Positions 4,063 through 14,569 of a DNA stretch of 14,644 nt are shown in pieces; within the stretch, counting starts at the first letter, position 1, and each line of letters begins with the position of its first letter. The stretch lies in IMG/VR virus record IMGVR_UViG_2681813318_000007, positions 1-14,644 of that record. The stretch is one strand, 5' to 3'. The notes beneath the pieces were generated by a model, which worked only from the letters and a program-made list of their open reading frames with translations, did not search any database and was not told where the DNA came from. Position numbers and translations under genes: made by a program. This DNA comes from a virus. Lineage: Duplodnaviria; Heunggongvirae; Uroviricota; Caudoviricetes.

Positions 4063-6861
4063 ATGTGGGGAAGTGAAAACAAACAAAATCTGGACGTACT
4101 GGATCCTGTGCAGTTGGTGCGTATCGAAGCGGTACACCGGGGGTTCCTTTACCAGCATCTTTACGCTGTAGGCTGCTTACTTTTGGCGCAGAGGGCAGCT
4201 ATGGACTCAGTAACTGTCGAGCTTGATGAGGATATTGAGCTGAAATCCAAACAGGAACGTCTCTACATTCAGGTTAAAACCCGTTCAAAACCTATTATGC
4301 CCAACGATGTGTCGGGGGCTCTGGAGCGATTTGTAAAGCTCAGAAATGAGCATACTTCGGCAAACCGCGAAGGGGTGGCTTCTTTTGTGATTATTGTAAA
4401 CCAGGCGCCTGGACCGCTGCTTCAGAAGATGATTGACGATAAAAAGCTTCCTTCTGATGTTCTTATTGTCTGGCCCCAGTCGACAGCTGGACGTCACCCG
4501 GCACTTCCGCCCGCATGGAGTACTCTGGCTGATGCGGCCACATGGTGTATCGCAGAAGCAGAAAAGCTGAAATTTTCACTATTGTCCCCAGAATCCTTGA
4601 TTTGGAAGTTAGCAGGATTGGTTCAGCTTGCCGCCACCGGAGGCGATATCAATGGACAACATACGTTTTTCACGGAAGAACTTACTGAACTATTTGAACA
4701 GTTGATCGTTCAGCTACAGGACTTTCCTGCACCACCAGCACTGTACCGCCCACAGAACGAAGAACCTTCTCTCACATCTGGTGAGCGGATCCGTATCCTT
4801 TGTGGACTCTCAGGTGCAGGCAAGACAGCTTGGGCCGCACAGGCCGCATTACACTCCACTGCACTTTGTGCTTATTACGACACCGGTGATCTTCCCGGTC
4901 CAGCTCTGGCCAGTACGCTGGTGCGCGAGATGGCTGCTAGATTTACAGCCCGTGACCAAGACGGTTTGCGCAGGATTTTGCTCCCCGGTGCCAGTGGTTT
5001 TGAGGCTCTTAGGAGTTTTGATACCTACCTGAAAGAGCAGGGTACCACCTTGGTGCTGGTTCTGGATAACGCCCATCGTGTACCTGCGGAAAATCTACTG
5101 GATGTTCTGAATGCAACTACACATATTCGTTTTGTGCTGTTGTGCCAGCCTCACGAAAACGTTCGCGAACTGGAGGTCATGACGGGGCTACAGCGCGAGG
5201 GCCTGCAGGGATGGAATCTCGATACGGTAGCTGTCGTTGTAAACGATATCGGAGGATTTGCCACCGCTATGGGATACGAGCAGCTACGGGCTTACACTGG
5301 TGGTCTTCCCCTGTATGTAGAGAGCGCCGCAAAAATCGCCGTTTCTGATTATGAGCGTAATGTCGATGCTCTGTGTGCTGAACTCCAGCAACAAACCCAT
5401 ACTGCGGAAACCGCCCAAGAAATTATTCTGTCACGTGTATTTCAGGGATTTGAATCACTACTTCAGAGCGCGCTGGCATTGTTCAGTCTCTCTGACGTAG
5501 GGCTGAGTCGCGAAGAGATTTCTACGCTCCTAATCAATTCGCTGAACATTTCACCAAGCAGTGCTGCTTCTTTAATTAGGAAAATGCGCGCTACTGGCAC
5601 TATTGAAATTTATGGAAACCAGACCCTGAAGGTACATGATGCTGTCAGGGGGCTAGGACTGCAACATCTGGAACTGATGGATCAGGGTATATCGAACAAA
5701 GCGCTACTAGCGCTGAAAGACCTTTTAGTTGAAAGTCTTCATAATACCCGCAATACAAAACGGTTATCGTTGTTGACTCAACTTTATATTAAGCTCAATG
5801 ATGTCACGACGTTGATCGAACTCTCAGGCCAAGAAATGTTTTATGAGATGGGCGTGACGGTCGACATTCTTGCAAGCTTGGAGCGTGCTGCAACATCGGA
5901 CTTATTGGGACCTGTTCATAAATTCTGGGCATTGGATGGCCTTGTTTTCGTTGAGCTTAAAGACGGAATATCCGACCACATTGCTCAGAGGTTAAACATC
6001 ATGGGAGCTTTACTTGCGGAGCACAAGTTCGGCTATCAAGAAGAGATGGCCTATGCAATGAAACGAATGTTATTTTCGGCAGAAAGCAATGATGCACGAG
6101 AAGTTCAAAAGCTGGCACAGGAAGTCCGCCCCCAACTCCCAGATGAAGAACATAAACGCATCTTTGACTACAACCATGCCATTGCACTCTGGAGATTAAA
6201 AAAACTCAAGGATGCTGAAACATTAAGCTGTAATGTTATACAAGGGTACTATTCTTTATTTGGTATCACACCTGCTGATGTCATAGGAAAAAACGCCGAC
6301 GCATTATGGAAAACTATTAATCATTCCGAAAATATGCAGGAACACTTTAAACATATGGCTGATGCTCTGGAGTTGCTGGCCAGAATTCGTGATGCGCAGG
6401 GAAAACTGTCACCATTACTGCGTATTCATTCGATGAAGTTCTACAATCTGGCCATGGCCCCGGAATCCATGGTCAGGGTGGGCCAAGATCTGGCGGATGA
6501 GTTTGTTGCCATAAAGGATTACGACGGTGCCAAGGAAGTCATGGAGCAACATGTCCTGCCGGTTGTCAATGAGGCAGGTCTAGTACATCGACTGATTCAG
6601 GTTCGAAGCCAATACGCAGTCATATTAGCACTATCGGGTCAGCATAAAGCAGCTGATGTCGAAATGCAGCGCCTTGCTCCCTATATCGAAGGCCTCACAG
6701 GTGTACAGCGTCAAGAAATCCAAAATCAATCAAATTACATCGTACAGCTTGCCCATAAAGCAGCAAAGACTAAATTAACTGAAGTTTTTGGTGCGGTCGG
6801 CCGGAATGAACAATGCCCCTGTGGCTCGGGAATAAAGTACAAAAAATGTCACGGTGCCTGA
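4063..6861 (+). CDS. Large multidomain protein (932 aa): Cap4/DUF4297-like N-terminal nuclease, P-loop STAND/AAA_16-like NTPase, helical C-terminal region, terminal SEC-C zinc motif; candidate antiphage defense protein (Avs-like)
   Basis: Uninterrupted 2.8-kb ORF. N-terminus has GFLYQHLYAVG, VELDEDIEL and LYIQVK (a PD-(D/E)xK-like E/D...QxK pattern). Walker A GLSGAGKT at aa 248-255 (nt 4804..4827) and Walker B LVLVLDNAH at aa 330-338 (MalT-like hhhhDxxH). The last 15 residues are CPCGSGIKYKKCHGA (SEC-C). AT-rich flanks; lies in the nin region next to a hok locus. Confidence 0.85.
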   Translation: MWGSENKQNLDVLDPVQLVRIEAVHRGFLYQHLYAVGCLLLAQRAAMDSVTVELDEDIELKSKQERLYIQVKTRSKPIMPNDVSGALERFVKLRNEHTSANREGVASFVIIVNQAPGPLLQKMIDDKKLPSDVLIVWPQSTAGRHPALPPAWSTLADAATWCIAEAEKLKFSLLSPESLIWKLAGLVQLAATGGDINGQHTFFTEELTELFEQLIVQLQDFPAPPALYRPQNEEPSLTSGERIRILCGLSGAGKTAWAAQAALHSTALCAYYDTGDLPGPALASTLVREMAARFTARDQDGLRRILLPGASGFEALRSFDTYLKEQGTTLVLVLDNAHRVPAENLLDVLNATTHIRFVLLCQPHENVRELEVMTGLQREGLQGWNLDTVAVVVNDIGGFATAMGYEQLRAYTGGLPLYVESAAKIAVSDYERNVDALCAELQQQTHTAETAQEIILSRVFQGFESLLQSALALFSLSDVGLSREEISTLLINSLNISPSSAASLIRKMRATGTIEIYGNQTLKVHDAVRGLGLQHLELMDQGISNKALLALKDLLVESLHNTRNTKRLSLLTQLYIKLNDVTTLIELSGQEMFYEMGVTVDILASLERAATSDLLGPVHKFWALDGLVFVELKDGISDHIAQRLNIMGALLAEHKFGYQEEMAYAMKRMLFSAESNDAREVQKLAQEVRPQLPDEEHKRIFDYNHAIALWRLKKLKDAETLSCNVIQGYYSLFGITPADVIGKNADALWKTINHSENMQEHFKHMADALELLARIRDAQGKLSPLLRIHSMKFYNLAMAPESMVRVGQDLADEFVAIKDYDGAKEVMEQHVLPVVNEAGLVHRLIQVRSQYAVILALSGQHKAADVEMQRLAPYIEGLTGVQRQEIQNQSNYIVQLAHKAAKTKLTEVFGAVGRNEQCPCGSGIKYKKCHGA

Positions 6862-6967: not shown

Positions 6968-6981
6968 GCGGGTGCTTGAGG
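6968..6981 (+). promoter_or_regulatory. 5' fold-back-inhibition element of the hok mRNA (pairs with 7344..7358)
   Basis: GCGGGTGCTTGAGG is complementary, with one bulge, to CCTCAATGCACCCGC at 7344..7358 just upstream of the terminator, the 5'-3' pairing typical of hok mRNAs. Confidence 0.55.
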
Positions 6982-7081
6982 CTATCTGTCTCAGGCATGA
7001 ACACCAAAGGCAGATAGAGAAAAGCCCCAGTTAACATTACGCGTCCTGCAAGACGCTTAACATTAATCTGAGGCTCAATCT

Positions 7082-7294
7082 ATGAACGGCAAATCTAGGT
7101 TAGCCTCTTACGTGCCGAAAGGCAAGGAGAAGCAGGCTATGAAGCAGCAAAAGGCGATGTTAATCGTCCTGATCGTCATCTGTTTAACCGTCATAGTGAC
7201 GGCACTGGTAACGAGGAAAGACCTCTGCGAGGTACGAATCCGAACCGGCCAGACGGAGGTCGCTGTCTTCACAGCTTACGAACCTGAGGAGTAA
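7082..7294 (+). CDS. mok: Mok-like reading frame (70 aa) extending hok upstream in the same frame
   Basis: ATG at 7082 in frame with hok; the extension MNGKSRLASYVPKGKEKQA precedes the Hok sequence, as I recall for chromosomal mokC. Confidence 0.45.
   Translation: MNGKSRLASYVPKGKEKQAMKQQKAMLIVLIVICLTVIVTALVTRKDLCEVRIRTGQTEVAVFTAYEPEE
7139..7294 (+). CDS. hok: Hok/Gef-family type I toxin (51 aa membrane peptide)
   Basis: MKQQKAMLIVLIVICLTVIVTALVTRKDLCEVRIRTGQTEVAVFTAYEPEE is near-identical in pattern to HokC/Gef (MKQHKAMIVALIVICITAVVAALVTRKDLCEVHIRTGQTEVAVFTAYESE). Confidence 0.9.
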   Translation: MKQQKAMLIVLIVICLTVIVTALVTRKDLCEVRIRTGQTEVAVFTAYEPEE

Positions 7295-8803: not shown

Positions 8804-9178
8804 ATGCTCATAGATTTGGTTTTACCTTACCCGCCGACGGTGAACACTTACTGGCGACGCCGTGGCAGCACATATTTTATCTCGGAGGAGGGAAAGCGTT
8901 ATCGCCGGGCTGTGGCGCTTATTGTTCGCCAGCAGCGGCTGAAATTAAGCCTGTCCGGAAGGCTGGCGATAAAGGTGATTGCAGAGCCACCGGATAAGCG
9001 TCGTCGCGACCTGGACAATATCCTGAAAGCACCGCTGGATGCGCTGACGCATGCGGGAGTGTTAATGGACGATGAGCAGTTTGATGAAATCAATATCGTT
9101 CGTGGTCAGCCAGTATCTGGTGGACGTCTGGGGGTGAAGATTTACCCCATAATGCATGAAGAGCAGGTCAAAAAATGA
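8804..9178 (+). CDS. rusA: RusA-family Holliday junction resolvase
   Basis: AGAGGTGA Shine-Dalgarno; the motif PPDKRRRDLDNILKAPLDALTHAGVLMDDEQ matches RusA (PDRRRRDLDN...DALT...DD). Typical position upstream of Q. Confidence 0.9.
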   Translation: MLIDLVLPYPPTVNTYWRRRGSTYFISEEGKRYRRAVALIVRQQRLKLSLSGRLAIKVIAEPPDKRRRDLDNILKAPLDALTHAGVLMDDEQFDEINIVRGQPVSGGRLGVKIYPIMHEEQVKK

Positions 9179-9996
9179 AACTGGAAGATTTACCGAAATA
9201 CTACTCCCCAAAATCCCCTTGCCTGACCGATGCATCGGCCTCAACGTCAAAAGATGCGCTGAGTATCACTGATGTGATGGCCGCGCAGGGCATGACACAG
9301 AATCGGGCTGAGATGGGGTTTTCTGCGTTCCTGGGGAAAATGGGCATCAGTATGAATGACAGGGCGCGGGCAACAGAATTACTGGCAGATTATGCACTCA
9401 GTCGGTGCGATCGTGTGGCGGCGTTGAGAAAACTTCCGGCAGAAATAAAACCGGTAGTGATGCGCATTATGGCTTCGTACGCTTTTGAGGATTATGCCCG
9501 CAGCGCAGCGAGTAAAAAGCAGTGCCCCTGTTGCTATGGGGAAAAATTTATTGAAAGCGTAGTTTTTACAAACAAGGTCCAGTATCCGGATGGTAAGCCG
9601 CCGGTATGGGCAAAGTGTACGAAAGGTGTGTATCCGTCTTACTGGGAAGAATGGAAAAAAGTCAGGGAGGTGGTAAAAGTTGCCTGTCCGGAGTGTGGCG
9701 GAAAGGGTGAGGTTTCCACCGCCTGTAAGGATTGCCGTGGGCGTGGTGTCGCCATTCACCGTGAAGAGTCGGTAAAACGTGGTATGCCTGTTATCAGAGA
9801 CTGCCAGCGTTGTGGTGGTCGTGGCTATGAAAGACTACCATCAACGGAGGCATTTAATGCTATATGTGAGGTGACAAACCAGATAACACGCGCGTCATGG
9901 GAAAAAACAGTTAAGAAATTCTATGATGCGCTGGTGACCCGGTTTGATATTGAAGAAGCATGGGCTGAGCGGCAGTTAAAAAAGGTAACTAGGTAA
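9175..9996 (+). CDS. Late-gene antitermination protein Q (QuuQ/YdfT-like, 273 aa, multiple CxxC zinc motifs)
   Basis: ATGA start/stop overlap with rusA. Begins MKLEDLPKYYSPKSP and carries CPCC, CPECGG, CKDCRG and CQRCGG motifs. Followed by a promoter, terminator and tRNAs, as downstream of Q in Stx-type phages. Confidence 0.8.
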   Translation: MKLEDLPKYYSPKSPCLTDASASTSKDALSITDVMAAQGMTQNRAEMGFSAFLGKMGISMNDRARATELLADYALSRCDRVAALRKLPAEIKPVVMRIMASYAFEDYARSAASKKQCPCCYGEKFIESVVFTNKVQYPDGKPPVWAKCTKGVYPSYWEEWKKVREVVKVACPECGGKGEVSTACKDCRGRGVAIHREESVKRGMPVIRDCQRCGGRGYERLPSTEAFNAICEVTNQITRASWEKTVKKFYDALVTRFDIEEAWAERQLKKVTR

Positions 9997-10001
9997 CAAG
10001 G

Positions 10002-10029
10002 TTGATTTTTCCGGAATCTGTGGTAAATT
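10002..10029 (+). promoter_or_regulatory. Candidate late promoter PR' (Q-utilisation region)
   Basis: TTGATT at 10002..10007, 16-bp spacer, TAAATT at 10024..10029, directly downstream of Q. Confidence 0.45.
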
Positions 10030-10077
10030 CGTCATAACGATGGGCTTTTTATGCCTGACGTTAGAAGAGTTTCTACA

Positions 10078-10100
10078 ACCCGCCGCCGAGCGGGTTTTTT
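10078..10100 (+). terminator. Rho-independent terminator (tR'-like) downstream of the late promoter
   Basis: ACCCGC-CGCCGA-GCGGGT stem-loop followed by TTTTTT. Confidence 0.7.
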
Positions 10101-10139
10101 ATTGCGGAATTAATTACGGACCGTTATTATTCTGCTCAC

Positions 10140-10215
10140 GGCCCTTTAGCTCAGTGGTGAGAGCGAGCGACTCATAATCGCCAGGTCGCTGGTTCAAATC
10201 CAGCAAGGGCCACCA
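10140..10215 (+). tRNA. tRNA with CAU anticodon (Ile2/Met type, ileZ-like)
   Basis: 76-nt cloverleaf: acceptor GGCCCTT/AAGGGCC, D-arm GCTCAGTGGTGAGAGC, anticodon loop CTCATAA, T-arm GGTTCAAATCC, encoded CCA. Confidence 0.9.
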
Positions 10216-10315
10216 TCACAAACCGCCATTAGCTTATCAGGAAGAGCAGACGACGCGATAACAGGGTTGTTGGTGCGGGGGCGGGTCCCCGATGGCGGTC
10301 CATTATCGGTATTCA

Positions 10316-10392
10316 GCGTTGTTAGCTCAGCCGGACAGAGCAATTGCCTTCTAAGCAATCGGTCACTGGTTCGAATCCAGTACAGCGCGCCA
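10316..10392 (+). tRNA. tRNA-Arg (UCU anticodon, argO/argN-like)
   Basis: 77-nt cloverleaf: acceptor GCGTTGT/ACAGCGC, D-arm GCTCAGCCGGACAGAGC, anticodon stem-loop ATTGC-CTTCTAA-GCAAT, T-arm GGTTCGAATCC, encoded CCA. Confidence 0.9.
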
Positions 10393-10529
10393 TATTCATT
10401 CTTCCAGATTCCTTCCGGCAGAGCCTTATACTGAAATATACCTGGCTCAGGATCTTGTTGAAAATATTATATGTTTGTCAAAAATAAAAGTTCTGTTAAG
10501 TATTGATTGAGTGTTTGTTATACCGTCTA

Positions 10530-10856
10530 ATGGTTTTTTCAGCATTAAATATTTATCATTCATATGGTGTGGGTAGAGTGAATATTGATGAGGCGTCGGG
10601 GTGTTTCATCCTTAGGCAGCGTATTGATATAGTCAATGCAGCACGAGCAAAGGCCTTCAGCCGTTTGACAGTTTTGTTTTGTACTCCTGATCGTCTTTCG
10701 GGAAGAGACGTTATTATTCTGAATAGTGATGCTATACAGAGGGTTTGCGATGAGTTCATGGTTGCTAATTCAGAATTATTTGCTCTTGTTCAGGAGTACA
10801 ACAGAATAGCCAGGACCTGTGGTATGGATGAACTTCGGATTACTCATCTGGGGTAG
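10530..10856 (+). CDS. Hypothetical protein (108 aa) in the AT-rich insertion downstream of the tRNAs
   Basis: Only sizeable ORF in the AT-rich region after the tRNAs; no convincing Shine-Dalgarno and no recognisable family, so coding status is uncertain. Confidence 0.3.
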   Translation: MVFSALNIYHSYGVGRVNIDEASGCFILRQRIDIVNAARAKAFSRLTVLFCTPDRLSGRDVIILNSDAIQRVCDEFMVANSELFALVQEYNRIARTCGMDELRITHLG

Positions 10857-11330
10857 ATACATATCTGGATTATCACCTGTTACGGTAAAAAGTTATTGCT
10901 TACTGTTTTTGTGAATGGCATTGCAGCAGCCGGATAATGTCAGTGCTGGCTGACGGTGTGCTGGTGGCGGGTGTGGTGGTTATTGCTTTCCCGTTGCTGA
11001 AAAAGAAAACGCCAGACTGTTAGCCGGGTATCAGTTAGCGGGAGAAATTTTTAAATACTTCACAATTCAGGCGGTTGACTGTTGTCTGGTTTGCGGGGAG
11101 TTTGTTAAAAGAAACTGGCATGGTGAATCCCCCTGTGCGGAGGGGCAATCAGCGAGTAGGTATATGGGATAATCGCGGATTCAGGTGCTGGTACTGAATT
11201 CACCGGGAGGCACCCGGCACCATGCACTTCAATAGATTCTCTCCACATTATGGATATTCTTTCAGAATATCCCACGCAGACTTTGTGTAAATGTTAACAA
11301 ATGTGCGTTTTATTTGATCTGATTCGCTGT

Positions 11331-11360
11331 TTGAGCGTCCAAAACAACGGTATATATAAT
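11331..11360 (+). promoter_or_regulatory. Candidate promoter for the first TolA-domain lipoprotein gene
   Basis: TTGAGC at 11331..11336, 18-bp spacer, perfect TATAAT at 11355..11360, followed by a GAGGA Shine-Dalgarno and the ATG at 11390. Confidence 0.5.
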
Positions 11361-11389
11361 CCTTTACTATATGACATATGTGAGGAAAA

Positions 11390-11818
11390 ATGGGTTTTCG
11401 TAGCGCATCAATTCTTACGTTGATTATTAGTGGGATTATTATCGGGTGCACTGATGCTGTATCGACAAATTATCATGACCGTACATCATATTACTCCGAT
11501 AAAGCAATAGAGACACAGTATGTGAGTTCATCTGAACGTACTTCTGATGTTAGTGAGGATATCCGTCTGTATGCCCATCAAATCAAGAGCGCTATCGAAA
11601 AACAGTTCGGGGATGCGAGTAAGTATTCAGGAAAAGAGTGTACACTGAGAATGCATATGGCCCCGAATGGCCTTCTACTGGAGGTTAAAAGAGAAAGTGG
11701 AGACCTCGATTTATGTCGTGAAGCGATGAATGCGATAAAGAATGCTGATATACCTGCCCCCCCTTCGCCGGAAGTATATAAAGTATTTCAAAATGGGGTG
11801 CTGGATTTTAAACCCTGA
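11390..11818 (+). CDS. Lipoprotein with a TolA C-terminal (domain III)-like domain (142 aa)
   Basis: Signal peptide with lipobox IIGC (MGFRSASILTLIISGIIIGC). C-terminal YAHQIKSAIEKQFGDASKYSGKECTLRMHMAPNGLLLEVK...PEVYKVFQNGVLDFKP closely parallels the E. coli TolA C-terminus (YAGQIKSAIESKFYDASSYAGKTCTLRIKLAPDGMLLDIK...YEVFKNAPLDFKP). Confidence 0.85.
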   Translation: MGFRSASILTLIISGIIIGCTDAVSTNYHDRTSYYSDKAIETQYVSSSERTSDVSEDIRLYAHQIKSAIEKQFGDASKYSGKECTLRMHMAPNGLLLEVKRESGDLDLCREAMNAIKNADIPAPPSPEVYKVFQNGVLDFKP

Positions 11819-11968
11819 TATTTATTGTTTTGTAATAAACGGTTTCGGCTTAGGTTTGTTCTGACACAACTACGGCACTGAGCTAAATTTAGCGGATAGT
11901 CAGCTCTGAGCCAGTGGCGGACGTAACAACTACTATTGCTGAGATTTTAATGGATTGAGGAGCAAGAA

Positions 11969-12364
11969 GTGGGATTAAAGAAAATCGTTATGTTGACTTT
12001 TTGGGTCGGTTTTGTTGCGGGATGCACACCTTTACACCCTTCAGATTGCCACAAAACTACTGCTACAGGTAGTTGCAGTTCAGGACGCTGGGATGATCAG
12101 GATGAATGGGGGGCGCAAGCGCGGGGAATCAGAGCTGCAATTAATGCCAAACTTGATGAGCCGCATAACTGGAAAGGGAAAAAATGCAGGTTGCATATGG
12201 AATTCTCTCAGGATGGCACGGCGTTAAAAATATCTACCAGTAACGGTGATAAAGCCTATTGCGAAGCGATAAAGTCCGCAGCTCATAAAGCCAAATTTCC
12301 GGCCTTCAACAATCCGGAAGTCTACAGAGATTTTCAGAAATCTGGCTTTGACATGCGAGGTTAG
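11969..12364 (+). CDS. Second, more divergent lipoprotein with a TolA C-terminal-like domain (131 aa)
   Basis: GTG start with a GAGGAG Shine-Dalgarno; signal peptide with lipobox VAGC. GIRAAINAKL...KGKKCRLHMEFSQDGTALKIS...PEVYRDFQKSGFDMRG aligns with the first copy and with TolA domain III. Confidence 0.8.
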   Translation: MGLKKIVMLTFWVGFVAGCTPLHPSDCHKTTATGSCSSGRWDDQDEWGAQARGIRAAINAKLDEPHNWKGKKCRLHMEFSQDGTALKISTSNGDKAYCEAIKSAAHKAKFPAFNNPEVYRDFQKSGFDMRG

Positions 12365-12489
12365 CTCTTCAATTACTATATCTCATTCATAGCAAACTGA
12401 CAGATTTGATGATGTTCTATATACGAAACCTGTGATGTCAAGTCTGAGCTAATACAAATAAACATAATATCAGAGAAATACATTTTATT

Positions 12490-12511
12490 AGCTCGCTACG
12501 GCGAGCTTTTT
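12490..12511 (+). terminator. Rho-independent terminator after the lipoprotein pair
   Basis: AGCTCGC-TACG-GCGAGCT stem-loop followed by TTTTTAT. Confidence 0.7.
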
Positions 12512-12615
12512 ATATTGCATCGTCTCCAGCATATATATCAATTAAGGCTCTGATTGATGTGTCTGGAAGCCTACACATAATAACTATGCCATCCGTTCCG
12601 TGCGGAGGTGAGGCT

Positions 12616-12831
12616 ATGAAATCCATGGACAAAATTTCAACAGGCATTGCCTACGGCACCTCCGCAGGCAGTGCTGGCTACTGGTTTTTACAGCTGCTCG
12701 ATAAAGTCACGCCCTCACAGTGGGCAGCAATAGGTGTGCTGGGTAGCCTGGTATTTGGCCTGCTGACGTACCTGACAAACCTTTATTTCAAGATTAAAGA
12801 AGACAAGCGTAAGGCTGCACGGGGAGAGTAA
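12616..12831 (+). CDS. Phage-21-type class II holin/pinholin with dual start (MKSM antiholin start at 12616, MDK holin start at 12625)
   Basis: [71 protein letters not shown] matches S21 pinholin; GGAGGTGAGG Shine-Dalgarno. The upstream extension in the ORF track is unlikely to be translated. Confidence 0.9.
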
Positions 12832-12835
12832 TTCA

Positions 12836-13180
12836 ATGACTCAAAAATATGAACTGATTGTGAAAGGGATCCGCAATTTTGAGAATAAAGTTACGGTAAC
12901 TTTAGCGTTACGGGACAAAGAACGCTTTGACGGTGAAATTTTTGACCTGGACATCTCGCTGGACCGTGTTGAAGGTGCCGCGCTGGAGTTTTATGAGGCA
13001 GCAGCCAGAAGGAGCATCAGACAGGTCTTCCTGGATGTTGCTGCCGGGTTATGTGAAGGGGATGAGCTGTCGCCGGAAAAGCGCCCCATAATTTTAGAGG
13101 CGCAGAATGTGTGGATAACCTACAAAGGAAAGCTACCGGGAAGAATTACTGGTTCTCTGAAGACTCCGCTGAAATGGTAA
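12836..13180 (+). CDS. YdfR-like (DUF1327-type) small protein inserted between holin and endolysin (114 aa)
   Basis: ATG 5 nt after the holin stop with a GGAGAG Shine-Dalgarno. N-terminus MTQKYELIVKGIRNFENKVTVTLALRDKERFDGEIFDLD matches my recollection of Qin YdfR, which sits between essQ and rrrQ. Confidence 0.65.
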   Translation: MTQKYELIVKGIRNFENKVTVTLALRDKERFDGEIFDLDISLDRVEGAALEFYEAAARRSIRQVFLDVAAGLCEGDELSPEKRPIILEAQNVWITYKGKLPGRITGSLKTPLKW

Positions 13181-13418
13181 TTTCACCAGCATATTTTTCT
13201 TCCAGTAATACCGCCAGCCACTTGAAAGAATTTTGTTGTTGCTGGGACCATTTGGGGTTGAGTGATTCAAGCTGGAGCGATGCCAGTGTTGGTTGCATTT
13301 GTTCCTTGGGAATTGAGAATGCCAGATATGAAAATGCGACAGTAAGGGCATTTACATCATCCCGAAGCTTGGAAATGCAGTCGAGCAACTCCTGTAGAGA
13401 AATGGTGCTATTGTCCAT
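13146..13418 (-). CDS. Hypothetical small helical protein (90 aa), antisense within the lysis cassette
   Basis: ATG at 13418 preceded by a GAGAGGA Shine-Dalgarno and a TTGAAT-N17-19-TACAAT promoter-like sequence on the minus strand. Its 3' end overlaps the YdfR-like gene convergently by 35 nt. The overlapping plus-strand ORF 13111..13443 looks non-coding. Confidence 0.45.
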   Translation of the reverse strand: MDNSTISLQELLDCISKLRDDVNALTVAFSYLAFSIPKEQMQPTLASLQLESLNPKWSQQQQNSFKWLAVLLEEKYAGEITISAESSENQ

Positions 13419-13523
13419 AAACAATCCTCTCTATTGTATTTAACTATTCCTTGCCTGATTCAACAGGCCGGGACAGATAAACATATCCAGGGTTCAGAAA
13501 CCGATAAACCCTGATAAATATCC

Positions 13524-14066
13524 ATGAACGTAAAAATCAGATACGGCCTGTCGGCTGCCGTTCTGGCACTGATTGCCGTCGGTGCGCCTGCGCCTGATAT
13601 TCTCGACCAGTTTCTGAATGAAAAAGAAGGTAACCACACAACGGCATACCGCGATGGTTCCGGCATCTGGACCATCTGTCGGGGTGCCACGGTGGTGGAT
13701 GGAAAACCCGTTTTTCCCGGTATGAAACTGTCGAAGGAAAAATGCGACCAGATTAACGCCATTGAACGGGATAAGGCGCTGGCATGGGTGGAGCGCAATA
13801 TTAAAGTGCCACTGACCGAACCACAGAAAGCGGGTATAGCGTCATTTTGTCCCTATAACATTGGCCCCGGTAAGTGTTTCCCGTCGACGTTTTATAAGCG
13901 GCTGAATGCCGATGATCGTAAGGGGGCATGCGAGGCGATTCGCTGGTGGATAAAAGATGGTGGGCGTGATTGCCGCCTGACAAAAGGGCAGAAGAATGGC
14001 TGTTATGGGCAGGTCGAGCGGCGCGATCAGGAAAGCGCACTGGCGTGCTGGGGGCTGGAGCAATGA
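13524..14066 (+). CDS. SAR endolysin (T4-lysozyme-like muramidase with N-terminal signal-anchor-release domain)
   Basis: N-terminal SAR-like segment YGLSAAVLALIAVGAPAP; catalytic E...D...T spacing in EGNHTTAYRDGSGIWTICRGAT; C-terminal ...ACWGLEQ. Follows the pinholin. Confidence 0.9.
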   Translation: MNVKIRYGLSAAVLALIAVGAPAPDILDQFLNEKEGNHTTAYRDGSGIWTICRGATVVDGKPVFPGMKLSKEKCDQINAIERDKALAWVERNIKVPLTEPQKAGIASFCPYNIGPGKCFPSTFYKRLNADDRKGACEAIRWWIKDGGRDCRLTKGQKNGCYGQVERRDQESALACWGLEQ

Positions 14067-14569
14067 AAATTAATCCGGATCTTATAGGCGTTGTCGTTAT
14101 TGCTGGCCTTTCGGTCGCTCTCGTCAAGAGTTGCTCTCACGCCAGTAATCTTCAGAGCGATAACGACGTTCTGCGAAGTGACAACTCTATGCTGGGGCAG
14201 GTAATCGCCACCCAGGCATTCAACTTCAATCGATTCAATCAGGTTGCAGAACATGCCAACAGTCTTAACTCCCTGATCGACACCAGCACCGAAAAAACCG
14301 TAATCGAATACCGGGAGATTCTCCGCCGTGAAAAAACCTGTGATCTGCCTGTTCCTGCTGATATCGCTGGTGGGTTGCTCGAATACACGTACCGTTTACG
14401 TGCCAGCGCCATGCACACCGATACCGGCAGACCTAATGAAGCCTATGATCGTACCGCTACCACCAGCTCAATGACCTACTGCCAAGCTGTCTTGTGGATT
14501 AAGCCGCTACTGGCGTTGATAGAAAAAGGAAATAATAATTTTTCGAGTATTCGTAACCGGCTCATTTAA
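14063..14569 (+). CDS. Rz: Rz i-spanin
   Basis: ATGA overlap with the endolysin stop. N-terminal transmembrane segment MKINPDLIGVVVIAGLSVALV followed by a helical periplasmic domain. The track start at 13970 is an upstream extension. Confidence 0.85.
   Translation: MKINPDLIGVVVIAGLSVALVKSCSHASNLQSDNDVLRSDNSMLGQVIATQAFNFNRFNQVAEHANSLNSLIDTSTEKTVIEYREILRREKTCDLPVPADIAGGLLEYTYRLRASAMHTDTGRPNEAYDRTATTSSMTYCQAVLWIKPLLALIEKGNNNFSSIRNRLI
14328..14474 (+). CDS. Rz1: Rz1 o-spanin lipoprotein embedded in the +1 frame of Rz
   Basis: GTG start with a GGGAGA Shine-Dalgarno. Translation MKKPVICLFLLISLVGCSNTRTVYVPAPCTPIPADLMKPMIVPLPPAQ has lipobox LVGC and is proline-rich; it lies entirely within Rz. Confidence 0.75.
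   Translation: MKKPVICLFLLISLVGCSNTRTVYVPAPCTPIPADLMKPMIVPLPPAQ

Follow-up and report, generated by a model that had tools for sequence, protein, structure and literature searches.

Two TolA domain III lipoproteins between the Q and lysis genes of a Qin-like prophage as candidate co-receptor decoys

Why would a lambdoid prophage carry, directly before its lysis genes, two small lipoproteins that end in the C-terminal domain of a host envelope protein? The DNA considered here is a window of 14,644 nucleotides from a Caudoviricetes record (IMGVR_UViG_2681813318_000007); it corresponds to a Qin-like lambdoid prophage, and all coordinates given below are positions within this window. Two genes, ORF1 (open reading frame 1; 11390..11818, + strand) and ORF2 (11969..12364, + strand), are located between the antiterminator gene Q and the holin gene. 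A preliminary description had reported two reading frames with the lipoboxes IIGC and VAGC at this place, followed by a domain aligning residue for residue with domain III of TolA (TolAIII), and both observations are borne out. ORF1 starts with ATG, encodes 142 residues and is preceded by a Shine-Dalgarno sequence GAGGA (11382-11386). ORF2 starts with GTG, encodes 131 residues and is preceded by GAGGAG (11957-11962). Both products are predicted to be outer-membrane lipoproteins, ORF2 representing a diverged TolAIII lineage. The role that we consider most likely, with about as much doubt as confidence, is that of a competitive decoy, which would act against Tol-dependent colicins and TolA-dependent filamentous phages.

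The Pfam profile TolA_C (PF06519), a search that had been proposed for this locus, matches both proteins well above its gathering cutoff of 25 bits: ORF1 with 82.6 bits (E 2.4e-23, profile positions 4-96 of 96) and ORF2 with 54.6 bits (E 1.3e-14, positions 10-92 of 96). In the AlphaFold2 (AF2) models, residues 51-142 of ORF1 and 45-131 of ORF2 reach predicted local distance difference test (pLDDT) values above 90 and are arranged in the order alpha-beta-beta-alpha-alpha-beta; the 25-30 residues following the lipobox Cys are predicted to be disordered in both proteins. The ORF1 domain (11540..11815, +) contains a predicted disulfide, Cys84/Cys109, and ends with the strand beta3, VLDFKP. That of ORF2 (12101..12361, +) contains Cys73/Cys98, and its beta3 strand is GFDMRG. 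Foldseek superposes the ORF1 model on 2x9a_B with a root-mean-square deviation (rmsd) of 0.6 Å and a target-normalised template modelling (TM) score of 0.96, and the ORF2 model on 3qdp with an rmsd of 1.0 Å and a target-normalised TM of 0.89. The top matches of both models are all TolAIII structures (target-normalised TM 0.85-0.96), and TonB C-terminal domains appear as distant matches only. Structure prediction, also proposed earlier as a check, returns the TolAIII fold for both proteins, with the Cys pair conserved.

At the sequence level, residues 55-142 of ORF1 align without any gap to residues 334-421 of E. coli TolA, its extreme C-terminus, with 52 identities over 88 positions (59%, E 5e-28), and the two share the tail ...VY.VF.N..LDFKP. 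The alignment of ORF2 with the TolA domain is gap-free too, with 27 of 88 residues identical. Judged by its sequence, ORF1 is a close, near-faithful mimic of E. coli TolAIII. The fold, the disulfide pair and the order of secondary-structure elements are common to both proteins and to the solved domain (E. coli TolA residues ~325-421; 1TOL, 1S62, 3QDP/3QDR, 2X9A; 0.6-1.0 Å). In addition, the C-terminal beta3 strand that serves TolB, the N1 domain of the phage protein g3p and colicin N is the same in ORF1, whereas ORF2 has a different beta3 sequence and is devoid of the lysines that bind colicin A.

The rest of TolA is missing. TolA possesses a domain I, the inner-membrane anchor, whose SHLS motif couples it to TolQR, and a helical domain II; neither is present in ORF1 or ORF2, where a lipoprotein signal peptide and a short tether precede the domain. 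With only 131-142 residues, the two proteins have no room for them. The full TolA models behave in line with this: NF007065 gives 107.8 for ORF1 and 53.7 for ORF2, both below its cutoff of 213, and TIGR02794 gives 47.2 for ORF2, below its cutoff of 59.45, and 75.6 for ORF1, above the cutoff but over positions 265-362 of 362 only. ORF1 and ORF2 belong to the TolA_C domain family, yet are not TolA proper. Both are placed in PHROG 5772, annotated as ‘unknown function’.

The signal peptide of ORF1 covers residues 1-20 (11390..11449, +; Cys20 codon at 11447-11449) and reads MGFRSASILTLIISGIIIG-C20-T, ending in ...IIIG-C20-T; that of ORF2 covers residues 1-19 (11969..12025, +; Cys19 codon at 12023-12025) and reads MGLKKIVMLTFWVGFVAG-C19-T. 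Each one combines a basic n-region, a hydrophobic core and a lipobox that agrees with the pattern [LVI][ASTVI][GAS]C at about residues 15-35, and each has Thr at position +2. The ORF1-type lipobox is kept in every full-length family member, where +2 is never Asp. Likewise, the ORF2 lipobox is found in 120 of 120 homologues among the matches listed, +2 being Ala, Ser or Thr in nearly all, in a few cases Cys, Gly or Val, and never Asp. According to the Lol-avoidance rule, a lipoprotein without Asp at +2 is sorted to the outer membrane, and both proteins are therefore predicted to end up there. TolA resides in the inner membrane, whereas the domains of ORF1 and ORF2, encoded by a mobile element, are predicted to be lipid-anchored to the opposite membrane through a short tether, which would keep them within a few nanometres of it.

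The two tethers are not alike. In ORF1 (residues 21-50; 11450..11539, +), pLDDT is below 50 and the ratio of nonsynonymous to synonymous substitutions (dN/dS; pairwise Nei-Gojobori throughout) is 0.37-0.50, which indicates relaxed constraint. In ORF2 (residues 20-44; 12026..12100, +), pLDDT is also below 50, yet dN/dS does not exceed 0.10 and synonymous sites are almost saturated. This segment contains a Cys27-x8-Cys36 loop, a feature found in the ORF2 clade only, and an acidic stretch, GRWDDQDEW. By our reading the ORF2 tether is under tighter constraint than would be expected of a plain linker, and tighter even than the folded domain, which suggests a second functional element. We considered GRWDDQDEWG as an epitope resembling the TolB box of colicin E9 and set it aside: its second Trp lies in helix alpha1 of the domain and the spacing differs.

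The lipoprotein nature of the two genes does not appear in current annotation. The Prokaryotic Genome Annotation Pipeline (PGAP) labels ORF1 as a tolA pseudogene, ‘incomplete, missing N-terminus’, and places the start of ORF2 at an internal ATG (11990), so that the n-region of the signal peptide is lost; the upstream KKIV residues are conserved in homologues. As a consequence of the pseudogene call and the internal start, the lipoprotein character of both is hidden in hundreds of genome records. In one comparison record (L004), the PGAP versions of ORF1 and ORF2 span 12359-12619 and 12791-13165.

Which ligands could these domains bind? In TolA, the beta3 edge of domain III (residues 415-421) binds the TolB N-terminus, g3p N1 of Ff and If1 phages, and colicin N by strand augmentation; with D418P or K420P, none of the three interactions is left and a full tol phenotype results (PMC7391070; PMC4339652). 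The TolB N-terminus is bound with a Kd of ~40 µM, colicin N with one of ~1 µM (PMC4339652). As formulated by Ridley and Lakey (2015), a beta3 binder requires a strand rich in beta-formers such as L417-K420, free backbone NH groups at 418 and 420, and no proline (PMC4339652). Colicin A uses the beta2 edge (375-380) together with K368, K379 and K396 (PMC3365938).

Over the segment equivalent to TolA L417-P421, ORF1 has the identical LDFKP and ORF2 the conservative F-D-M-R-G. The predicted beta3 sites, L138-D139-F140-K141 in ORF1, the same as in TolA, and F127-D128-M129-R130 in ORF2, with conservative exchanges and no proline, are both compatible with strand augmentation by these rules. Among other residues probed by mutagenesis, I348, E349, E381, A391 and F412 are kept in ORF1; ORF2 keeps only I348 and F412. 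The colicin A lysines K368/K379/K396 correspond to H89, K100 and K117 in ORF1, where two of the three are kept and where a His takes the place of K368, with which the essential ColA Tyr58 pairs; in ORF2 they correspond to E78, S89 and H106, none being kept. The beta2 strand (equivalent of L375-P380) is conservative in ORF1 (LLEVKR) and diverged in ORF2 (ALKIST). More generally, the alpha3-beta3 tail is the best-preserved segment across the diverged lipoproteins, many of which end in ...VY.VFKN.PLDFK., near the TolA tail VYEVFKNAPLDFKP. The ORF2 clade is the exception, with its own tail [FL]-[DN]-M-x-G.

We propose that each protein would hold a complete TolAIII at the outer membrane on a flexible tether, and that this domain would catch incoming Tol-dependent colicins or filamentous phages by TolA-like beta-strand augmentation. 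Since domains I and II are missing, no coupling to TolQR would be expected; since the domain would bind TolA ligands without pulling on them or delivering them to the inner membrane, it would be a competitive, non-productive binder by construction. Captured ligands would be stranded, with neither force transmission nor a route to the inner membrane, and the lysogen or plasmid host would gain tolerance to group A colicins and exclusion of filamentous phages of the Ff, If1 and IKe types. The range of ORF1 would comprise the ligands of the beta3 site (g3p N1, colicin N) and, in part, the colicin A site on beta2. That of ORF2 is probably different, because its beta3 strand is altered, the colicin A lysines are lost and the tether carries a conserved disulfide loop. 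Expression in the lysogen would come from a promoter of the cassette itself, supplemented by the Q-dependent late transcript. In large amounts, the domains would also compete for the TolB N-terminus, resulting in a tol-like leaky envelope.

Several known systems bear on this proposal. Small outer-membrane lipoproteins encoded by mobile elements and made in the carrier cell are known to neutralise entry receptors: T5 Llp and phi80/N15 Cor act on FhuA, and F-plasmid TraT acts on OmpA. A block to the entry of competitors is proposed for ORF1 and ORF2 too. However, Llp, Cor and TraT mask a host receptor, whereas ORF1 and ORF2 are copies of a co-receptor that would bind the invader, and there is no sequence or fold relationship between the two groups. 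The closest functional precedent is artificially secreted TolAIII, a motor-less periplasmic domain as here, which reportedly confers tolerance to group A colicins. That construct was soluble and over-produced in the laboratory, whereas the present proteins are natural, predicted to be lipid-anchored, and maintained in two diverged versions. Signal-peptide-directed TolAIII serves as a means of releasing periplasmic proteins from E. coli, according to PMC6195910, which cites Levengood-Freyermuth, Click & Webster 1993 and Wan & Baneyx 1998; the effect of TolAIII over-production has thus been on record for decades. Finally, in g3p-mediated exclusion, periplasmic N-terminal domains of g3p block TolA, so that Ff infection is prevented and colicin sensitivity perturbed (Boeke et al. 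1982). This involves the same TolAIII-g3p interaction that we propose as a target, in mirror image: there, the ligand saturates the co-receptor; here, surplus co-receptor would saturate the ligand. The domain family is known and the proteins bear generic database names, and by comparison with these systems the co-receptor decoy would be a distinct variant beside receptor-masking lipoproteins and g3p exclusion.

Where do the two genes come from? The preliminary description had regarded them as paralogous copies whose duplication and divergence suggested diversifying selection. This view proved misleading. ORF1 and ORF2 share only 28-29% identity, ORF1 is much nearer to TolA, the two genes have separate evolutionary distributions, and each is found alone elsewhere; a recent tandem duplication is rejected on these grounds. 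Moreover, dN/dS is 0.11-0.25 in the ORF1 domain and 0.06-0.09 in the ORF2 domain, and both genes are under purifying selection. A recent capture from E. coli tolA is rejected as well, as a blastn search with ORF1 (word size 11) reached 898 genomes and never the host tolA. Identity to E. coli TolA is 59% for ORF1 and 43% for a lipoprotein of Klebsiella IncF plasmids, each being closer to TolA than to the other lineages, and ORF2 is roughly equidistant, with 31% to TolA and 28% and 32% to the other two lineages. This identity matrix suggests that TolAIII was fused to a lipoprotein signal repeatedly and independently. The sequences are best explained if ORF1 and ORF2 are independently acquired lipoproteins, ORF2 representing an older, separate lineage.

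The distribution of the genes also differs. ORF1-type genes are confined to E. coli, where they are present in 898 of 5,426 complete genomes (16%), at 962 places of which 959 lie on chromosomes; clustering at 90% identity yields 46 groups. They always lie between Q and the holin gene, in several prophage backbones with differing Q proteins and companion cargo. In 781 genomes the ORF1 sequence shows an identity of 99% or more; other prophages carry intact variants that have diverged from it. The ORF1-ORF2 pairing corresponds to a single prophage lineage (773 genomes). In ORF1-only prophages, tblastn detected no ORF2-type sequence, and an obligate two-gene system is thereby rejected.

ORF2-type genes form 370 clusters in Escherichia, Shigella, Citrobacter, Enterobacter, Klebsiella, Raoultella and Serratia. 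They occur alone on pO157-like toxB-carrying IncF plasmids, near psiB-psiA-hok; alone on I-complex plasmids (IncI1/B/O, IncK2/Z; MPF_I), at a fixed site 68 bp after the relaxase gene nikB; and as solitary chromosomal genes, in five different neighbourhoods for the five genera examined, with no chromosomal neighbour conserved across these. There is no synteny conserved between genera, which fits mobile accessory cargo. A HMMER search over 1.84 billion cluster representatives found 130 ORF2 relatives. Of the 70 with a length of 105-170 residues, 52 have a lipobox after a hydrophobic stretch (53 with a looser filter, none with Asp at +2), and the clusters with a source name among ten looked up are all from Enterobacterales. 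In Raoultella terrigena (record L027, 7140-7475), the chromosomal copy is followed two genes downstream by a 111-residue secreted protein with a weak TonB_C match, which might represent a free-standing TonB C-terminal domain of comparable kind; the protein was encountered in this single genus.

On plasmids, a protein-level search found TolA_C genes in 917 of 72,556 (488 conjugative, 364 non-mobilizable and 65 mobilizable), and Shigella plasmids also carry copies. A third lineage of TolAIII lipoproteins is carried by ~300 mostly Klebsiella plasmids of the IncF type (IncFIB/IncFII, MPF_F). Its representative WP_001567367 has 144 residues, a lipobox region LITA-C-S... and the tail AALDFRL, and its gene lies 3' of a gene for a secreted thioredoxin-fold (DsbA/DsbC-like) protein in both examples (Klebsiella pneumoniae pMR0617ctx, records L022/L023, 5217-6246). 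Ff and If1 phages attach first to F and I pili, their primary receptors, and afterwards depend on TolAIII; the carriage of related lipoproteins on I- and F-type conjugative plasmids fits a decoy role. Either ORF was found in only 1 of 50,697 phage records, one that matches the window, so that the cassette is no typical feature of sequenced phages; it travels with resident, often defective prophages rather than with phages that have been isolated and sequenced.

In the window, the gene order is DUF968/YdfU, RusA, Q, pR'-like/tR'-like elements, tRNA(CAT), tRNA-Arg(TCT), DUF3927, an STnc100 small RNA (sRNA), ORF1, ORF2 and a terminator, then the holin gene essD, DUF1327, lysozyme and a spanin-like ORF. 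Q (9175..9996, +) is supported by its Pfam Antiterm match (6e-55) and by PGAP. It is followed by a pR'-like promoter read from the sequence (TTGATT-16-TAAATT, 10002-10029, +) and by a tR'-like terminator found by a terminator scan (10077-10096, +). By analogy with the organisation of lambdoid phages, we infer that these represent pR' and tR' and that the cassette, downstream of them, lies inside the Q-dependent late unit. Next come tRNA(CAT), a tRNA-Ile according to PGAP (10140-10215, +), tRNA-Arg(TCT) (10316-10392, +) and the DUF3927 mini-ORF (10892..11023). The sRNA gene (11089..11279, +; Rfam RF02076, 114 bits for a gathering score of 47) matches STnc100 over its full length; it lies directly 5' of the ORF1 promoter, inside the low-GC cargo island between Q and the holin gene. 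The lysis cassette starts with the holin EssD, of P21 S type (12616..12831, +; Pfam Phage_holin_2_1 1.8e-35, PGAP essD).

The preliminary description had also proposed that the two genes have their own promoter and terminator and lie in an AT-rich insertion where Stx phages carry stx, and the sequence agrees on each count. The predicted sigma-70-like promoter (11331..11360, +) consists of a -35 TTGAGC (11331-11336), an 18-nt spacer and a -10 TATAAT (11355-11360); it scores 10/12 against the consensus and is the top match in the scanned region 9900-12900. In variants 91% identical, the -35 is kept and the -10 becomes TGTAAT. The cassette ends with an intrinsic terminator (12490..12512, +), made of a 7-bp GC-rich stem and a 4-nt loop (hairpin 12490..12507) followed by a T-run; the hairpin has -13 kcal/mol and z = -4.19, and none of 200 shuffled sequences folds equally well. 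The GC content is 0.39-0.46 over 11200-12600 and 0.50-0.56 in the Q/nin region. With a predicted promoter and terminator, a position between conserved modules, a GC content unlike that of its flanks and other cargo in the same slot of related prophages, the cassette has the features of a phage ‘moron’. It shares with known lambdoid morons (stx in Stx phages; the nanS-p esterase) the slot 3' of Q/pR'/tR'/tRNAs and 5' of the holin gene, as well as the predicted signals and the GC content below the flanks; in contrast, their cargo is a toxin or an esterase and here it is a TolA mimic. One diverged ORF1 variant lies directly 5' of a nanS-p-type esterase typical of the stx-slot region.

The cassette is 99.9% identical to that of Escherichia phage mEp460_ev081 and to those of hundreds of E. 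coli chromosomes, and in at least one genome the prophage carrying it is defective, with a truncated terminase. Downstream of the holin gene, the window diverges from the otherwise identical mEp460_ev081 over ~13100..14100. The DUF1327 ORF is longer than in that phage (12836..13180, 114 residues), and the lysozyme ORF (13524..14066) does not abut it as it does there; these differences indicate a mosaic junction in the lysis module. Upstream, between the replication module and hokD/rem, a 932-residue ORF (4063..6861, +) resembles defence-type cargo: it has a Cap4-type nuclease-like N-terminus, a weak PADLOC match to LmuA, an AAA_22 ATPase domain and, at its extreme C-terminus, a SEC-C motif. 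Its PGAP name is ‘SEC-C metal-binding domain-containing protein’. Among complete E. coli genomes just 16 have it, and different cargo occupies its position in mEp460_ev081 and strain IMT16316. A sok antitoxin RNA (6970..7144, +; Rfam RF01794, 110 bits) belongs to a prophage hokD/sok module 5' of rem and DUF968.

How does the decoy role compare with other explanations? Several observations weigh against it. ORF2, with the substitutions K368E, K379S and K396H and the strand GFDMRG in place of PLDFKP, may bind a ligand other than the known TolA partners. The promoter is a consensus match only; it appears partly conserved, among close variants, and in variants of 66% identity the upstream region is unrelated to it. 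No PADLOC model matches ORF1 or ORF2. ORF2-type genes stand alone amid housekeeping genes in Enterobacter, Klebsiella and Raoultella, which is compatible with a physiological role in the envelope, and pO157-type carriers are non-conjugative, so that the argument from pilus-specific phages is not valid for every plasmid host. Lastly, TolAIII at the outer membrane is placed to compete for TolB held by Pal, and interference with Tol-Pal might be the primary function. In line with the decoy role, the ORF2-type gene of the Serratia marcescens chromosome (record L008, 7957-9736) is followed by genes for GmrSD_N and HEPN (MAE_28990 / RiboL-PSP) proteins in a defence-island-like arrangement; no such neighbourhood was seen in the other four genera examined.

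Interference with Tol-Pal could itself be what the proteins are for, the main rival reading and one that we hold to be rather unlikely. The tethered domain would capture the TolB N-terminus in TolB-Pal without applying force and thereby block the TolA-driven mobilisation of Pal, either aiding lysis and release late from pR' or raising vesicle output. The position of the cassette in the Q-dependent late unit, directly 5' of the holin, endolysin and spanin genes, speaks for it, as do the preservation in ORF1 of the beta3 site that TolB binds, the leakiness caused by secreted TolAIII, and a Tol-Pal review that proposes modulation of TolB-TolA or TolB-Pal as a means of regulating vesiculation. TolB is, in addition, the sole ligand common to all host genera with the conserved tail motif. 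However, the TolA-TolB affinity is weak relative to that of colicin N, and because of this invaders would be captured preferentially. A constitutive tol phenotype would be costly, yet the genes, which are under purifying selection, are retained in the defective prophages of 16% of E. coli genomes as well as in chromosomal copies. Furthermore, the predicted promoter and terminator suggest expression outside the lytic cycle, and the plasmid copies have no lysis context. Alternatively, the TolAIII fold may serve, above all in ORF2, as a scaffold for a different partner, with an envelope role apart from the known TolA ligands, such as strand augmentation with another protein or a function linked to conjugation; we consider this unlikely. 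It would account for the beta3 and beta2 edges of ORF2, which are unlike those of TolA, for its tightly constrained tether, for the ordinary chromosomal neighbourhoods of ORF2-type genes, for the I-complex plasmid copies in the nikAB relaxase operon region and for the pairing of the Klebsiella lineage with a thioredoxin-fold protein. It sits poorly with the nearly unchanged TolA binding tail of ORF1 and many relatives and with the normal conjugation of tolA mutants in the literature, and no conserved gene neighbour points to another partner. The pseudogene label that RefSeq gives ORF1, together with the defective state of the prophage in at least one genome, could imply that the genes are functionless remnants of a captured tolA in decay. 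This is hardly credible: the frames are intact and have Shine-Dalgarno sites as well as signal peptides of the lipoprotein type, which are absent from full-length TolA, dN/dS is well below 1, the near-identical sequences in 781 genomes are accompanied by diverged intact variants in other prophages, and the fact that ORF1 does not detect host tolA at the DNA level argues against a recent fragment. Selection and architecture effectively refute the pseudogene reading.

Taken as a co-receptor decoy, the cassette leads to a broader proposal, which we advance tentatively and with somewhat more doubt than belief. Mobile elements of Enterobacterales, namely prophages, I- and F-type plasmids and orphan islands, would have repeatedly fused TolAIII to a lipoprotein signal, giving a natural class of co-receptor decoys that act just under the outer membrane and confer a broad, hitherto unrecognised immunity against Tol-dependent colicins and pilus-specific filamentous phages. 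Conjugative plasmids would in this way offset their vulnerability to phages of their own pilus, ORF1 and ORF2 would cover different ligands, and the presence of such genes would help to explain strain differences in colicin sensitivity. Our full-text search found no functional study of prophage- or plasmid-borne TolAIII lipoproteins, most subscription journals being outside its reach, and a natural, widespread co-receptor decoy encoded by mobile elements is not described in the literature searched.

TolAIII is a hub exploited by group A colicins and by filamentous phages of the Ff, If1 and CTXphi types. If the proposal is true, superinfection exclusion and bacteriocin tolerance would gain a new mechanism, and there would be a hint as to how conjugative plasmids keep down the burden of phages specific for their pili, a matter of relevance to strategies that use phages against plasmids and to hosts for M13-type phage display. 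It would also correct a systematic annotation error, given that hundreds of RefSeq genomes list ORF1 as a pseudogene of tolA, and would provide natural dominant-negative tools for research on Tol-Pal. Finally, the copies on pO157-like toxB-carrying IncF plasmids and on Shigella plasmids would make such decoys relevant to the ecology of pathogens.

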